A stretch of DNA of 64,000 bases from a virus: UHGV virus genome UHGV-0037280; one strand, 5' to 3'. The position numbers were made by a program, and so were the translations under genes. The notes under the pieces are model-generated. The model searched no databases and was not told the DNA's origin. It saw only the letters and a program-made list of their open reading frames with translations. This document shows, piece after piece, positions 47,118 to 54,079 of this stretch (positions within the stretch are counted from its first letter, which is position 1; every line of letters begins with the position of its first letter).

Positions 47118-47134
47118 ACTTGCTCTAATAAATT
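47118..47134 (+). promoter_or_regulatory. C1 operator upstream of icd/ant-like module
   Basis: ACTTGCTCTAATAAATT. Confidence 0.65.
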
Positions 47135-47475
47135 GTGATTTTTGACTGCCGATGTTACATTGAACCTGACATCTTGCGCCTTGAGGCATTTTCGGTTTAT
47201 GCTTATCAGGCACCTCATTAAAACGGGTGCCGGGATTGAGACCCCGGATAATGTCAAAGGCGACACAGACGCCGAAAGCGTCTTTTTTTTGTGTCATGCC
47301 ATCGCACAGCCATACGTAGCGTTTAGCTCAGAGATCAATGGTAGTGCTGGCTGGGCTGCCGAAAGGCAGGCCGGTTCCCTTTGACGCCGGTAGTCTCAAC
47401 CCAGTCAGTGCTACCGCCATTGAGATTGAGACCTCACGCGGTAGCTCCTTAACTTAGTCAAAGGAGGCTGCCATT

Positions 47476-47697
47476 ATGGCTACTATCCCTACCCCAACTC
47501 ATCCTGAATTTATCTGGCGCTTTTACTCCTGCCAGAAACGTCACTATCACTTCGTTATCGCAACAACAGAAGATGAGGCACGTTCTCAGCTTCCGGATGC
47601 TCCCTGCATTTTCTCCGCACGCTTTTCTACTGACTCGCGCAATTCTCTCAGTTACTGGTGCCTCCCTGTTAACGCTTCTGTTCAGGAGGGGCTATGA
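47476..47697 (+). CDS. icd: Icd-like small protein (cell-division-inhibitor family)
   Basis: 73 aa with FIWRF ... EDEARSQL motif series; overlaps ant start. Confidence 0.65.
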   Translation: MATIPTPTHPEFIWRFYSCQKRHYHFVIATTEDEARSQLPDAPCIFSARFSTDSRNSLSYWCLPVNASVQEGL

Positions 47698-48806
47698 GAA
47701 CGTCATTAGTCACCCGTGAAGAGATGATCGAGGCAATTGAACAGCACACAATCTGTATCAGCACCAGGGATATTCCCGGTGTTATAGCCAATTACTTCAT
47801 GATCACCAAACAACTCTACAGGAGAAAGGACAAGAACGCGGTTCACCGTATCCTGCTGTCTGATATCCGCGAATACCTGCTCGAACAGGGGCATCTGAAT
47901 TACGCAACCGTCGCAGCCGAAACACGCAAGGAGGCACACAGAATGAAAGCTACTAACGTTAAATCAGAAAAAGTTCATGCACCTTCAGTTCAGGAATCAG
48001 AGCTGGTGGTTGTTCAAAATCAGCCTGATGAAATTCCCGTTCTGGAATGGCAGGGAGTACGCGTCGTAACGACCGAAACTCTTGCTAAGGGGTATGGAAC
48101 CGAAACTAATAACATCAAAGTTAACTATACGCGTAATGCTGATCGCTTTGAGGAAGGTAAACATTACTTTCTACTAACTGGTTCAAAATTAAGAGAATTG
48201 AAGGACAAGGTTACTCAAAGTAACTTAGTCGCACCGCGAGCAAAGCACCTCACTCTCTGGACGGAGCGTGGCGCAGCCCGCCACGCTAAAATGCTCGAAA
48301 CCGATCAGGCATGGGCATTCTTTGAAAAACTGGAAGACAGCTACTTCCGGCAAAAAGAACAGCAACCGGTTGCAATCCCCCAGACGCTTCCAGAAGCTCT
48401 GCGCCTGGCTGCCGAGTTGGCTGAACAAAAGCAGCTACTGGAACAGAAGGCCCACCAGCTAAATCAACAACTGGTGGCCGCAGCCCCCAAGGTCGATTTT
48501 GCCGACCGGGTATCAGTAGCTAAAGGGATCCTGATTGGGAATTTTGCAAAGGTTGTTGGACTTAAGCAAAACGCGCTGTTTGCCTGGTTACGGGAGAACG
48601 GCATCCTGATTGCGTCCGGCGGACGTAAAAATGTGCCGTTCCAGCAGTACATCACCGCGGGGTATTTCACGGTGAAAGAAGTGGTGCTGGATGATGAAGA
48701 TGGCTACCAGATACGGTTGACGCCTCAATTAACGGGTAAAGGCCAGCAGTGGTTAACTCGCAAGCTACTTGATGCTGGCTTGTTAAAACCGGTGGCGGCT
48801 GAATAA
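47694..48806 (+). CDS. antirepressor-like protein (conserved N-terminus, ORF6N/KilA-N-like centre, KilAC-like C-terminus)
   Basis: 370 aa; central PVLEWQGVRVVTTETLAKGYG...; C-terminal VDFADRVSVAKGILIGNFAKVVGLKQNALFAWL. Confidence 0.75.
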   Translation: MRTSLVTREEMIEAIEQHTICISTRDIPGVIANYFMITKQLYRRKDKNAVHRILLSDIREYLLEQGHLNYATVAAETRKEAHRMKATNVKSEKVHAPSVQESELVVVQNQPDEIPVLEWQGVRVVTTETLAKGYGTETNNIKVNYTRNADRFEEGKHYFLLTGSKLRELKDKVTQSNLVAPRAKHLTLWTERGAARHAKMLETDQAWAFFEKLEDSYFRQKEQQPVAIPQTLPEALRLAAELAEQKQLLEQKAHQLNQQLVAAAPKVDFADRVSVAKGILIGNFAKVVGLKQNALFAWLRENGILIASGGRKNVPFQQYITAGYFTVKEVVLDDEDGYQIRLTPQLTGKGQQWLTRKLLDAGLLKPVAAE

Positions 48807-48838
48807 TGGAAGAATGCCCGGTTGATGCCGGGCATAAT

Positions 48839-49690
48839 TTATTGCGCGCTTTCGGGGTTGTCGTTTACTGGCTGCCCCTTCTTGGTTTTACGGCTGCGCG
48901 TAACTGATGCGGCTGACTTAACCTTTTTCTCTTCGCGAGTGATGGCAATTTGTTTTTTTACATTTTCAATATCTGCCAGGCGATATATTTTTGCTTGCGG
49001 CCAGCGGTCGCAGATGATCGGTTCTATGGAGTCATAAAGGCTAAATTTTGCTTTTTCGAATTCACCGTTGATGATAATTCCATCACGGAGAGTTTCATCG
49101 CAGATAAACACGCCACACAGTGGCACATGGTAACTAACTGATTTACCATCATTGTAGTTAGGGCTACTGGAAATGTAGTGGACGCGCAGCATTGTTTCGC
49201 TAAAGCCGTGTACGCGCATACGGAATTTTTCATCCTCCGGGTACTGCTTCATTAGCTCTTTTGTTGCTTCCAGGTTCTCTATGTATTTCGCACTGTGCTC
49301 ATTGATCCCCGCGCTTTTCTGGATGCGAATGTCCTTATCAATCAGATGAATAATGCGGCCAGCGGTCATGTTGACGCTGTTCACAGCTTCTGTCTGATAA
49401 GTTGTAACCTTACGCACACCGCGAAGGATGTTAGGCACTGGATATAAAATAGTCTTTGGGATATTGAGGTCTGGGTACTGTTCCAGTTCCCGCGCCATTA
49501 AAGTCCATTTATCAATTTCAGCCTGAATGCTGTCCGTTTCTTTGAACGGCAGAACGACAACCGGGCGAACAGGACGACCGTCGCTGGCGGCATCAACGTG
49601 TTGGGCGCGTGCAACAGCTTTTTTTAGAAAGAGATCCCTGAAGCTGACGAACTCCTGGTACAGTTGTTCGCCGTAGACATAATTTATCAT
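48839..49690 (-). CDS. c1: C1 repressor of lysis
   Basis: 283 aa beginning MINYVYGEQLYQEF, as I recall P1 C1. Confidence 0.95.
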   Translation of the reverse strand: MINYVYGEQLYQEFVSFRDLFLKKAVARAQHVDAASDGRPVRPVVVLPFKETDSIQAEIDKWTLMARELEQYPDLNIPKTILYPVPNILRGVRKVTTYQTEAVNSVNMTAGRIIHLIDKDIRIQKSAGINEHSAKYIENLEATKELMKQYPEDEKFRMRVHGFSETMLRVHYISSSPNYNDGKSVSYHVPLCGVFICDETLRDGIIINGEFEKAKFSLYDSIEPIICDRWPQAKIYRLADIENVKKQIAITREEKKVKSAASVTRSRKTKKGQPVNDNPESAQ

Positions 49691-52452: not shown

Positions 52453-52478
52453 GGCGGCCGAAAGGCCGCCTTTTTTAA
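52453..52478 (+). terminator. rho-independent terminator
   Basis: GGCGGCC gaaa GGCCGCC followed by T6. Confidence 0.65.
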
Positions 52479-53537
52479 TCATTCAGCCGCCACCGGTTTT
52501 AACAAGCCAGCATCGAGCAGTTTACGCGTCAACCACTGTTGGCCTTTCCCCGTTAATTGAGGCGTCAGCCGTATCTGATAGCCATCTTCATCATCCAGCA
52601 CCACTTCTTTCACTGTGAAATATCCGGCGTTTATGTACTGCTGAAACGGTACATTTTTACGTCCGCCGGACGCAATCAGGATGCCGTTCTCCCGTAACCA
52701 GGCAAACAACGCGTTTTGCTTAAGCCCAACAACCTTTGCAAAATTTCCAATCAGGATCCCCTTGGCCCCTGATACCCGGTCGGCAAAATCGACTTTAGGG
52801 GCGGCGGCCACCAGCTGCTGATTTAGCTGGTGGGCTTTCTGTTCCAGAAGTTGCTTTTGTTCAGCCAGCTCGGCAGCCAGGCGCAGAGCTTCGGGGAGTG
52901 TTTGGGGAATCACTGGAGAAGCAGTGCTAGCCTGCTGCAATTCCTCCAGTTTGTCGATCAGCGAACGGCGGACCGCTTTTGACTCGCGCGCGGCAACTCT
53001 CAGGGCTTGTTTGTAGGTCATGGAGATAGTTTCAGATGTTGTGTTGTTTAATTTTTGCACTACGAAAATTTCGTAGTACTCACCATCCAGTTCATCCTTA
53101 ACTCTGGCAATAAAATCATTATTGCGAACTGGTTTTTCGCTACATAATTTCCGCGCTTCATTGACCATCTTTAACAGCGTCTGGCTGTCGATTGTGTCTC
53201 CGGTGTTGGGGATAGCATCCATGGCCGTTGCTGGTGTGGTTGCTGTCAAAGGCTTTGTAACGACAACATCTGGTTTGCTTGCTTTCATTCTGTGTGCCTC
53301 CTTGCGTGTTTCGGCTGCGACGGTTGCGTAATTCAGATGCCCCTGTTCGAGCAGGTATTCGCGAATATCAGACAGCAGGATACGGTGAACCGCGTTCTTG
53401 TCCTTTCTCCGGTAAAGTTGTTTGGTGATCATGAAGTAGTTGGCAATAACACCCGGTATATCCCTGGTACTGATACAGGCAGTGTGCTGTTCAATTGCCT
53501 CAATCATCTCTTCACGGGTGACTAATGACGTTCTCAT
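52479..53537 (-). CDS. antirepressor-like protein, paralog with divergent central domain
   Basis: 352 aa; first 86 aa and last about 150 aa nearly identical to the 47694..48806 protein; central segment unrelated. Confidence 0.75.
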   Translation of the reverse strand: MRTSLVTREEMIEAIEQHTACISTRDIPGVIANYFMITKQLYRRKDKNAVHRILLSDIREYLLEQGHLNYATVAAETRKEAHRMKASKPDVVVTKPLTATTPATAMDAIPNTGDTIDSQTLLKMVNEARKLCSEKPVRNNDFIARVKDELDGEYYEIFVVQKLNNTTSETISMTYKQALRVAARESKAVRRSLIDKLEELQQASTASPVIPQTLPEALRLAAELAEQKQLLEQKAHQLNQQLVAAAPKVDFADRVSGAKGILIGNFAKVVGLKQNALFAWLRENGILIASGGRKNVPFQQYINAGYFTVKEVVLDDEDGYQIRLTPQLTGKGQQWLTRKLLDAGLLKPVAAE

Positions 53538-53755
53538 AGTCCCTCCTGAGCAGAAGCGTTAACAGGGAGGCACCAGTAACTGAGAGAATTGCGCGAATCG
53601 GTAGAAAAACGGGCGGAGAAAATGCAGGGAGCATCCGGAAGCTGAGAACGTGCCTCATCTTCTGTTGGTGCGATAACGAAGTGATAGTGACGTTTTTGAC
53701 AAGAATAGAAGCGCCAGATGAATTCAGGGCGTGCGCAAGGATTGGCATTAACCAT
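53534..53755 (-). CDS. Icd-like small protein, paralog
   Basis: 73 aa; identical to 47476..47697 product from residue 10 onward apart from two substitutions. Confidence 0.65.
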   Translation of the reverse strand: MVNANPCARPEFIWRFYSCQKRHYHFVIAPTEDEARSQLPDAPCIFSARFSTDSRNSLSYWCLPVNASAQEGL

Positions 53756-54062
53756 AGTTACGGCCTCACTAACAGGTTTAACAACCTGCTACCCGCTGCT
53801 AAACAGGTGGCAGGACGTGACGGGGTTAGCAGACTGGCGTTAGTGAAACCAGCAGGCCGAAGCCTCCCCATCACGCCCCACCATAATTTGGGCGTAACGC
53901 GGTTTTACGGACACAAAAATACCGCAATATCGGATATCTGCGGTTGTCCACACTAACATTCAGGCTGCTAAACCCGGTCGCAGAATTTGCTACGACGTAG
54001 GAACTATAAGCCTGAACAACAGGAAGATCAATAGTCTGGCGTCCAATAGTAGTTTATTTGTT

Positions 54063-54079
54063 TCAATAAATCAAATTTA
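54063..54079 (-). promoter_or_regulatory. C1 operator upstream of the minus-strand icd/ant-like module
   Basis: minus-strand GTTGCTCTAATAAATTT. Confidence 0.65.

Follow-up and report, generated by a model that had tools for sequence, protein, structure and literature searches.

The 64,000-nt stretch of DNA analysed here (UHGV virus genome UHGV-0037280; hereafter the window) is from a P1-like phage-plasmid and carries two extra complete icd/ant operons, one on either side of the main repressor gene c1. The system is a known one, of the P1 immI type, here in a variant form with extra copies that have their own RNA codes. We consider it likely that the 2 modules are complete, intact paralogues of P1/P7 immI at two non-canonical sites and that they act by the P1-type mechanism. 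The window begins just downstream of the canonical immI site, and the count of 2 modules is that of the window only.

Two icd/ant operons around c1

Module 1 (47119-48835, plus strand) lies between pacB, which ends at 47115, and c1. Module 2 (52479-54089, minus strand) lies between the cra-position gene and a 214-aa gene (54347-54991) that is annotated in relatives as 'maturation control protein' (mat); in P1, the gene at the cra-mat position is ref. The open reading frames bear out the placement and strands proposed in the initial annotation, with the modules in inverted relative orientation; neither site is the canonical immI position upstream of kilA-repL. The c1-coi-loxP-cre-cra core between the modules (48839-52237) consists of c1 (48839-49690, minus strand), coi (49801-50010, minus strand), a single loxP (50392-50425), a 73-aa ORF (50615-50836), cre (50844-51875, plus strand), and the cra-position gene (51926-52237, plus strand). 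The ant1 and c1 genes converge on a hairpin (48814-48835) that is likely a shared terminator. In each module, the order of parts is C1 operator/promoter, a1/b1, C4 RNA, a2/b2, icd, and ant1 with a nested ant2.

A 73-aa Icd-like gene overlapped by an Ant-like gene had been described for each module, and the coordinates confirm this. The icd homologues, both 73 aa (47476-47697, plus strand, and 53534-53755, minus strand), are followed by ant1 genes encoding 370 aa in module 1 (47694-48806, plus strand) and 352 aa in module 2 (52479-53537, minus strand). In both cases the icd stop overlaps the ant1 start (ATGA), from which we predict translational coupling. A start codon for ant2 is present in-frame at codon 84 (ATG 47943 behind AAGGAGG in module 1; ATG 53288-53286 in module 2), matching the annotated ant2 of P1, and all 4 module ORFs are intact in the window. 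Icd and Ant of both modules align over their full length with P1/P7 Icd and Ant1; the module 1 Icd matches phrog_1426 (1.6e-45) and aligns with P7 Icd. Both Ants have matches to phrog_63 and to Pfam KilAC but differ in their centres. The module 1 protein (phrog_63 'anti-repressor Ant', 7e-135) has an Ant1-specific N-terminus, an ORF6N centre (Pfam, 1.3e-20), and a KilAC C-terminus (Pfam ANT/KilAC, 1.7e-31), whereas that of module 2 combines a P1/P7-type centre with the KilAC C-terminus.

As the initial annotation had it, each antirepressor module has a C1 operator at its head: CTTGCTCTAATAAATTG in module 1 (47119-47135, plus strand; 2 mismatches to the consensus ATTGCTCTAATAAATTT) and GTTGCTCTAATAAATTT in module 2 (54073-54089, minus strand; 1 mismatch). 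Both have the same orientation as their own operon. The window holds 15 C1 operator sites, compared to 0.35 expected by chance, with those in the core at 49785-49801, 50249-50265, 50332-50348, and 51893-51909. Read by eye, the module 1 operator overlaps the -35 element of a candidate promoter (TTGTGA, 47133-47138, and TACATT, 47156-47161, with a 17-nt spacer), which scores below the threshold of the consensus scan and whose position agrees with the P1/P7 arrangement in the alignment. For module 2, the promoter scan gave a promoter-like site, TTGATC-17-TATAGT (54031-54003, minus strand).

C4 RNAs and recognition codes

A c4-like RNA had been suspected in the leaders, and one is present in both, with full-length matches to Rfam RF01695 well above the gathering score of 45. 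The module 1 C4 antisense RNA (47334-47421, plus strand; 75.4 bits) has a type II scaffold, and that of module 2 (53803-53888, minus strand; 70.0 bits) has the type I scaffold of P1/P7. In the predicted module 1 fold, the b' loop CCTTTGAC (47378-47385) and the single-stranded a' GTCTCAA (47393-47399) are wholly or mostly unpaired. Likewise, b' TCACTAAC (53846-53839; as in P1) and a' CTGCTAA (53832-53826; as in P7) of module 2 fall where its predicted fold is unpaired or mostly so.

In both modules, a' and b' have exact complements of 7-8 nt upstream (a1/b1) and downstream (a2/b2). In module 1, all on the plus strand, a1 TTGAGAC (47236-47242) and b1 GTCAAAGG (47253-47260) are part of an IsrK-like element (47210-47291) that scores 60.2 bits with Rfam isrK (gathering score 50) and has a terminator-like hairpin (47267-47283) followed by a T run. 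Its icd-leader targets (47426-47467) comprise a2 TTGAGAC (47426-47432) and b2 GTCAAAGG (47457-47464), the latter overlapping the icd Shine-Dalgarno sequence AAGGAGG. In module 2, on the minus strand, a1 TTAGCAG (53971-53965) and b1 GTTAGTG (53957-53951) lie in an a1/b1 element at 53951-54009 (53.2 bits with Rfam c4-a1b1; gathering score 46.7), and a2 TTAGCAG (53802-53796) and b2 GTTAGTGA (53773-53766) follow downstream, with b2 abutting the icd ribosome-binding site. The code of module 1 is therefore TTGAGAC/GTCAAAGG and that of module 2 is TTAGCAG (the a of P7)/GTTAGTG (the b of P1), so that the 2 codes differ at both sites. Since the recognition sequences are unrelated, each C4 should silence its own operon only, and on the strength of the leader sequences the 2 modules should be silenced independently.

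The C4 recognition sites and their targets covary perfectly among 44 distinct related leaders, with 100% of cells paired. For type I leaders (20 distinct), 300/300 and 259/259 cells are paired and 8 pairs have changed on both sides, compared to only 25-46% paired in a control with the 3' partners shifted by 1-3 columns. For type II/III leaders (n = 23), 345/345 cells are paired in each test, with 7 pairs changed on both sides, and a1/b1 too covaries with a'/b' in the leader types of both modules. Codes are all distinct in 15 of the 16 genomes or contigs with at least 2 modules; one IMG/VR contig has 2 modules with an identical code. At the pacB/c1 site, the type II scaffold occurs with all 4 a x b combinations (14, 7, 7, and 3 modules). 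Some module pairs of pMTY1886 have a common a and others a common b, and one pair of pB19429_2 has a common b; partial cross-repression between modules is therefore possible.

Both modules share with P1/P7 immI (Op51 operator, c4, icd, ant1/ant2) the order of parts, the C1 operator consensus, an RNA of the Rfam C4 family on the strand of its targets, upstream a1/b1 copies of these targets, and antisense control through two sites (a, b), of which b2 covers the icd ribosome site. They also share the 73-aa Icd overlapping ant1, the codon 84 start of ant2, and the KilAC C-terminus. By contrast, P1/P7 immI is located beside kilA-repL, while the window modules are at pacB/c1 and cra/mat with no kilA-repL downstream, and with 2 modules in the window and 3-4 in relatives their number is unlike that of P1/P7. 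Module 2 has the scaffold and the Ant centre in common with P1/P7 and joins the a of P7 to the b of P1, whereas module 1 differs in its C4 scaffold, its unrelated a and b, its IsrK-like upstream element, and the ORF6N N-domain of its Ant2.

The upstream leader of module 1, which matches Rfam isrK at 60 bits, resembles IsrK-orf45-anrP of Salmonella Gifsy-1 in having a short, intrinsically terminated RNA upstream of a small ORF/RNA and a translationally coupled antirepressor gene. At the IsrK locus, the terminated RNA can switch on translation of the antirepressor gene downstream of it (PMC4825925); in module 1, the terminated RNA contains a1/b1 and could titrate C4. The Gifsy-1 prophage, however, is lambdoid and integrated and lacks a C1 operator, and the study of this locus describes no C4 RNA there (PMC4825925). 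In P22 immI (sar, ant, mnt, arc), a second immunity region, a small antisense RNA likewise keeps an antirepressor gene in check (PMC12197685), but the sequences are unrelated to the modules and there is neither icd nor a C1-type operator. In addition, P22 sar is a cis-encoded antisense RNA of the ant leader, whereas C4 is a processed same-strand RNA with 2 short recognition loops.

Proposed function and targets of the antirepressors

The mechanism of P1 immI has been described (PMC8198154, PMC8546580, PMC12197685; see also the P7 GenBank annotation): C4 is processed by RNase P to approximately 77 nt, and Ant1/Ant2 inactivate C1, to which Ant1 of P1/P7 binds (PMC8198154). By homology, C4 processing and Ant-C1 binding would also take place in the modules. 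C1 would repress transcription at the operator of each module, as in P1, and the processed C4 RNA, through its exposed a' and b', would pair with a2/b2 of the transcript from which it comes, blocking icd translation and hence, through translational coupling, the synthesis of Ant1 and Ant2. Ant, when made, would bind and inactivate the C1 repressor, and Icd would arrest cell division. We infer that the modules probably act as stacked, independently controlled units of immunity and anti-immunity. With several codes, a lysogen would silence the Ant of a wider set of incoming P1-like phages, and extra Ant genes would escape a resident prophage that has no matching C4. If this is true, P1/P7 heteroimmunity is multiplied.

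Alternatively, the extra Ants may be aimed not at C1 but at other repressors (such as those of lambdoid or Stx prophages in the same host, or those of other plasmid prophages), or at host or defence proteins, in which case the modules would mediate cross-induction or counter-defence and not P1-type immunity. We regard this as unlikely, albeit worth weighing. The N-domain of Ant2 is the most variable part of the proteins (ORF6N in module 1, P1/P7-type in module 2), and both Ants therefore need not target C1; however, an ORF6N-type Ant occupies the canonical immI position beside kilA-repL in pB19429_2 and therefore presumably does the canonical job there. STEC and E. albertii account for many of the host strains, and trans-acting antirepressors are reportedly known in Gifsy prophages, but the C1 operator and the C4 circuit are kept in all modules. 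Similarly, 68 Stx2a-converting phages have antirepressor genes with 91% DNA identity to the centre of the module 2 ant gene (52932-53195), yet the product of the module 2 gene is co-linear over the full length with the C1-binding Ant1 of P1/P7 (PMC8198154). Pfam and phrog searches gave no defence-related or anti-defence domain, and nothing points to the anti-defence role that had been raised for the modules.

Inverted repeats and module exchange

The high nucleotide identity between the modules that had been noted over 2 blocks is confirmed. Block A (47503-47950, inverted partner 53281-53728; 448 nt, 94.4% identity) covers icd from codon 10 onward, the N-terminus specific to Ant1, and the start of ant2 with its ribosome site, while block B (48375-48807, inverted partner 52478-52910; 433 nt, 91.0% identity) contains the KilAC C-terminal part of ant. 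The single inverted repeat arm of approximately 1.3 kb in the initial annotation does not hold, as there are 2 arms of approximately 0.44 kb per side with an unrelated ant centre (424 and 370 nt) between them; the core is indeed bracketed, but by inner arms 3650 nt apart and not 3.7 kb. The modules are unlike in their RNA leaders and in the first domain of Ant2, and the leaders, of approximately 350 nt, have no likeness past the operator.

Two pairs of inverted arms of approximately 440 nt, with 91-94% identity around 3.65 kb, are long enough for RecA-dependent recombination and could allow the c1-coi-loxP-cre-cra core to invert, whether as a switch driven by recombination or with 2 stable isomers as the outcome. 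Such inversion, put forward in the initial annotation, is very improbable. With a synthetic inversion isomer as query (8.2 kb with unique flanks; coverage cut-off at least 80%), none of the 867 PLSDB records with any match reached the cut-off, compared to 43 records that did so for the native order; coverage by the isomer peaked at 71%, in native records that aligned via the symmetric interior. All 43 IMG/VR loci with pacB, c1, and cre are native and none is inverted, as are 40/40 loci with cre and mat; these orientation sets include approximately 7 loci with both modules. Sequence divergence of 6-9% strongly depresses homologous recombination. Moreover, the arms are icd/ant coding sequence, with no site-specific recombinase gene or site tied to them, and the sole recombinase inside the core is Cre, with its one loxP. 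The P1 C-segment (Cin/cix) and Mu G are similar in that inverted repeats surround a segment of a few kb in a P1-like genome, but these have short cix sites, a dedicated serine invertase, and both orientations, whereas the window has diverged coding arms, no associated invertase, and a single orientation seen.

The native collinear arrangement, at a coverage of at least 80% of a 7-kb query, recurs in 43 plasmids of PLSDB and in 32 complete E. coli genomes of RefSeq; IMG/VR contigs have it too. Given this recurrence in records from many laboratories, we rejected an assembly artefact. Three complete relatives have the canonical immI beside kilA-repL as well as modules at the sites described here (3, 4, and 4 modules, canonical immI included), and the modules are therefore additional to canonical immI and not identical with it, as had been supposed. 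That they are redundant or decaying duplicates, or a product of mis-assembly, without a function of their own is barely credible: the modules do duplicate an operon that relatives already have at the canonical site, and the cra-side ant is truncated in some of them (annotated remnants of 291 and 816 nt; L008 and L006), but the 4 ORFs are intact in the window, all RNA elements are present with perfect cognate complementarity, the covariation shows selection on pairing, the arrangement recurs, the codes differ between copies, which is the opposite of recent duplication or mis-assembly, and widespread frameshifts or loss of complementarity, affecting most copies, are not seen.

For paralogous immI operons, which we favour, the similar blocks would simply be the conserved parts of the operon (icd and the Ant1 N-terminus; the KilAC C-terminus). 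Rather than being the arms of an inversion switch, they may serve as recombination points that shuffle leaders and Ant2 N-domains between modules. In agreement with the module exchange envisaged in the initial annotation, the relatives combine leader types, block A variants, Ant2 N-domain types, and block B independently of one another.

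Anatomy and orientation of the two modules

The window derives from a P1-like phage-plasmid, and the closest database match to its segment 47100-54100 is the E. coli plasmid pB19429_2 (97% over the full 7 kb). Its landmarks are pacA/pacB (44438-47115), c1 (48839-49690, minus strand), coi (49801-50010, minus strand), loxP (50392-50425), cre (50844-51875), the cra-position gene (51926-52237), a mat homologue (54347-54991) and darB (56765-63532, minus strand); Pfam gave no match for Icd, C1, Coi, the cra-position protein or Mat. The ORF coordinates agree with the proposal in the initial annotation that two icd/ant modules flank the c1-to-cra core in opposite orientation: module 1 (47119-48835, plus strand) lies between pacB and c1, and module 2 (52479-54089, minus strand) between the cra-position gene and mat. 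Each module has the C1-operator match at its head (47119-47135 and 54073-54089) and the 73-aa icd-like ORF overlapped by an ant-like ORF (370 and 352 aa) that had been described there.

The modules had also been described as a single inverted repeat of 1.3 kb with two blocks of high identity. The blocks are real, but the repeat consists of two arms of approximately 0.44 kb per side: a BLAST comparison of one module with the reverse complement of the other returned exactly two blocks and a short operator match. Block A pairs 47503-47950 with 53728-53281 (448 nt, 94.4%), and block B pairs 48375-48807 with 52910-52478 (433 nt, 91.0%); outside the blocks, the centre of ant and the leader of approximately 350 nt are unrelated between the modules. 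P1/P7 Icd and Ant1 can be aligned full-length with the window proteins, and a nested ant2 ribosome site and ATG at codon 84 occupy the exact position of the annotated P1 ant2. Because this ant2 start falls where block A ends, the block limits coincide with functional boundaries. Block A comprises icd, the Ant1-specific N-terminus and the ant2 start; the variable segment is the Ant2 N-domain, of the ORF6N type in module 1 and the P1/P7 type in module 2; and block B encodes the KilAC C-terminus. Searching PDB sequences with Ant returned no hit. All sequence-level defining features of an immI operon are present in both modules, with genomic position as the exception; the modules are real members of the known immI kind of system. 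That they could be an assembly artefact is ruled out by the same arrangement in many complete plasmids.

The repeat had been suggested to mediate inversion of the core. We constructed an in-silico isomer (46500-48817, the reverse complement of 48818-52467, and 52468-54700), which was matched at 80% coverage or more by none of the PLSDB records, among 867 with any match; the best matches (71%) were native records, obtained via the symmetric interior. By contrast, the native order was present at 80% or more in 43 PLSDB records and in 32 of 5426 complete E. coli genomes, and native orientation was found in 43/43 IMG/VR loci with pacB, c1 and cre and in 40/40 with cre and mat. Neither PLSDB nor IMG/VR contained an inverted isomer. 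The synthetic isomer and the gene order in assembled sequences, in which rare inversion within a population would not show, therefore argue against both an inversion switch and stable isomers, and remove the inverted repeat around c1-loxP-cre as a false lead.

C4 RNAs and their recognition codes

The leaders had been suspected to encode a c4-like RNA, and both contain a full-length match to the Rfam C4 antisense RNA (gathering score 45), at 47334-47421 in module 1 (75.4 bits) and 53803-53888 in module 2 (70.0 bits). Upstream of each C4 lies an a1/b1 element, matching Rfam c4-a1b1 in module 2 (53.2 bits) and isrK in module 1 (60.2 bits). Alignment of the leaders with those of P1 (X15639) and P7 (AF503408, in which Op(c4), c4, icd and ant1/ant2 are annotated) separates two scaffolds: that of module 2 is P1/P7-like (type I), and that of module 1 (type II) is similar to the canonical immI leader of pB19429_2. 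In the predicted C4 folds, the recognition sequence b' occupies the loop of a hairpin and a' the single-stranded stretch after it, both wholly or mostly unpaired. Each module carries exact complements of its own a' and b' both upstream (a1, b1) and downstream (a2, b2), with b2 overlapping the icd Shine-Dalgarno sequence. The code of module 1 is a = TTGAGAC and b = GTCAAAGG, and that of module 2 combines the P7 sequence for a (TTAGCAG) with the P1 sequence for b (GTTAGTG). By direct reading, contiguous complementarity between the two codes does not exceed 2-3 nt, so cross-repression between the modules is not expected. RNA duplex energies of the C4 loops against each leader showed the trend expected for b'; the values were confounded by bases of the flanking stems and by an unrelated GC-rich stretch, and pairing was judged from exact complements and covariation counts instead.

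The leaders in which covariation was determined vary mainly at a1, b1, b', a', a2 and b2; elsewhere they show little change (mean column identity 93% for type I). For the 20 distinct type I leaders, all 300 cells of a':a2 and b':b2 are paired, with 8 pairs changed on both sides (slid controls, 28-46% and at most 1 pair), as are all 259 cells of a1:a' and b1:b', again with 8 such pairs (controls, 25-39% and at most 1). The 23 type II and type III leaders (type III being a third scaffold found in relatives) give 345/345 paired cells and 7 pairs changed on both sides for the downstream target (controls, 24-55% and at most 2 pairs), and 345/345 and 7 for the upstream element (controls, 31-56% and at most 2 pairs). 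These counts strongly indicate selection for the pairings, those of the two window modules included.

A 39-aa ORF annotated in RefSeq as 'ash family protein' coincides with the type II C4 gene (comparison sequences L002, 28295-28414, and L008, 1738-1857; approximately 47300-47420 in the window) and is probably an RNA gene miscalled as a protein. 'orf45' of the Gifsy-1 IsrK locus, in which nucleotides are conserved and amino acids are not, may be the same kind of miscall.

Multiplicity and exchange of modules in relatives

That the window modules are additional to the canonical immI, the P1-type operon adjoining kilA-repL, is borne out by pB19429_2, whose three modules occupy both window sites and the canonical one. 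Four modules are present in pMTY1886 (canonical, pacB-c1, cra-mat and one beyond mat; the last is complete, at L011 16883-18213) and in pO26_98E11_1, where one complete module adjoins dnaB/ban (L014 35229-36481). P1-like plasmids thus use at least 5 sites and carry up to four modules each. The left end of the window coincides with the 3' end of repL or follows it closely. In pEA18_2, homology to window position 72 begins 43 nt past the repL stop, with icd-ant-kilA-repL directly upstream; a third, canonical module may therefore lie just outside the window, upstream of position 1.

An IMG/VR scan with Icd yielded 79 loci, and the code survey covers the 109 modules found. At the pacB-c1 site, type II modules show all four combinations of a (TTGAGAC or TTGGAAC) with b (GCAAAAGG or GTCAAAGG), in 14, 7, 7 and 3 modules; the alternative there is a type III scaffold with a TTGGCCT or TTGGTCT and b GTCTAAGG, including G-U wobble pairs. 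At the cra-mat site, type I modules combine a P1- or P7-type a with b GTACATG, GTTAGTG, ACTTACG or TGATTGTG; type I modules also carry GATTGTG (the P7 b) at the site class "mat-|." and ACGAATG at an unclassed site. Type I has 2 a-variants and at least 5 b-variants, and type II 2 x 2; with type III included, at least a dozen C4 codes occur on three scaffolds, in genomes that stack two to four modules. All codes are distinct in 15 of the 16 genomes or contigs with at least 2 modules. The sole exception is a tandem type III pair in IMGVR_UViG_2698536372_000019 (L018 7832-9587), a contig with masked gaps; its leaders have identical C4 and isrK matches 1.57 kb apart, reflecting a duplication or an assembly problem.

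Module exchange, also proposed from the sequence, is seen as a shuffling of parts: comparing the window modules with 21 others, leader type, block A variant, Ant2 N-domain and block B assort independently. A type I leader is combined with an ORF6N centre in the post-mat module of pMTY1886 and the cra-side module of pO26, and block A of module 1 shares more identity with block A of module 2 (94.4%) than with the block at the corresponding position in pB19429_2 (92.6%). The conserved blocks have therefore repeatedly served as sites of recombination. The centre of ant in module 2 (52932-53195) has approximately 91% DNA identity to antirepressor genes of 68 Stx2a-converting lambdoid phages; in the example Stx2a_F451_08 (L095 2572-3306), no icd is annotated beside the gene. 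This similarity suggests recent exchange of the Ant2 N-domain between P1-like and Stx phages.

Possible function, novelty and neighbourhood

In the textbook account, P1 immunity is tripartite and includes one immI. The heteroimmunity of P1 and P7, with two base changes per C4 loop, has to our knowledge been the lone example since 1990. RNase P processing and Rho-dependent polarity were reportedly described by Citron and Schuster in 1990/1992 and Biere et al. in 1992, and immI is reported to have two promoters (Citron and Schuster in 1990/1992, Heinrich in 1994, Lobocka in 2004, Gilcrease and Casjens in 2018).

According to published work (PMC8198154, PMC8546580, PMC12197685 and PMC11897509) and the P7 annotation, the P1 operon is repressed by C1 at its operator, and C4 blocks translation of icd and, by coupling, synthesis of Ant; Ant1/Ant2 inactivate C1, Icd blocks cell division, and P1/P7 heteroimmunity is seated in c4. 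By analogy, the window modules would operate a P1-type circuit, with C1 acting at the operator, C4 on icd and Ant against C1. Work on Gifsy-1 IsrK suggests an extra layer in the module 1 leader (PMC4825925): termination at 47267-47291 would yield a short RNA that carries a1/b1 and could titrate C4, thereby turning translation on.

With each added code, a lysogen would gain the ability to silence a further class of incoming Ant, and the phage would gain an Ant that escapes silencing by a resident lacking the matching C4; a function in stacking immunity is plausible. The interleaved order a1-b1-b'-a'-a2-b2 means that each new code combination needs several coordinated changes. We tentatively propose, as a reading somewhat less likely than not, that the two to four stacked immI operons form a combinatorial two-site C4/target code whose members are kept independent of one another in each genome, and which frequency-dependent selection diversifies. 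This would amount to an RNA lock-and-key arms race over superinfection immunity, in which swapped Ant2 N-domains may also reach repressors of other prophages, e.g., Stx phages. The anti-defence role considered in the initial annotation found support in neither domains nor context.

The extra modules as such had been recorded before, in annotations and in passing remarks: for pTZ20_1P and RCS47, Venturini et al. 2019 noted ant with two short ORFs in the pacB-c1 interval, and, separately, icd-ant1/2 homologues at the res-mod position in pSvP1 (PMC6906374). Full-text searches, one of them on the RNA families, returned no study dealing with several immI operons, the codes of their C4 RNAs or their placement around immC; Gilcrease & Casjens 2018 may discuss these. 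The anatomy and the system of codes look new; what is new about this variant is its position, its multiplicity, its C4 scaffold and code, and its Ant2 domain. The survey suggests that P1/P7 heteroimmunity is one point in a larger natural set of C4 codes. If the codes are independent, they would account for both the coexistence and the mutual invasion of closely similar P1-like phage-plasmids, which are frequent vehicles of resistance genes in E. coli, Salmonella and E. albertii; they would also supply, ready for use, small RNA repressor/target pairs that are independent of one another.

Beside module 2, the mat-darB interval is a variable, defence-like hot-spot. In the window (55034-56731), it encodes a 316-aa PIN_12/PIN_8-domain protein and two small ORFs; P1 has res-mod there, and relatives have a type III restriction-modification system, a SIR2-family protein, an MBL-fold hydrolase or a DUF2971 protein. 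Between the module 2 operator and mat lies an operator-like sequence (ATGCACTAATAAATAT, 54152-54195) that is 96% complementary to 49777-49800, downstream of coi, and overlaps a minus-strand promoter-like TTGTCA-16-AATAAT reading towards module 2; it may serve the module 2 operon as an additional, upstream promoter, or may be a mat control region. Between loxP and cre, pMTY1886 carries an insertion of genes for a HigB-family toxin and a transcriptional regulator (L010 5046-5711) in place of the 73-aa ORF at 50615-50836 of the window. At the left end, an Ail/Lom-family outer-membrane protein gene (125-640) follows repL as in SJ46-like Salmonella plasmids, to which 72-2500 is 99.5% identical; the closest relatives of the left end and the immC region differ, and the genome is therefore a mosaic.
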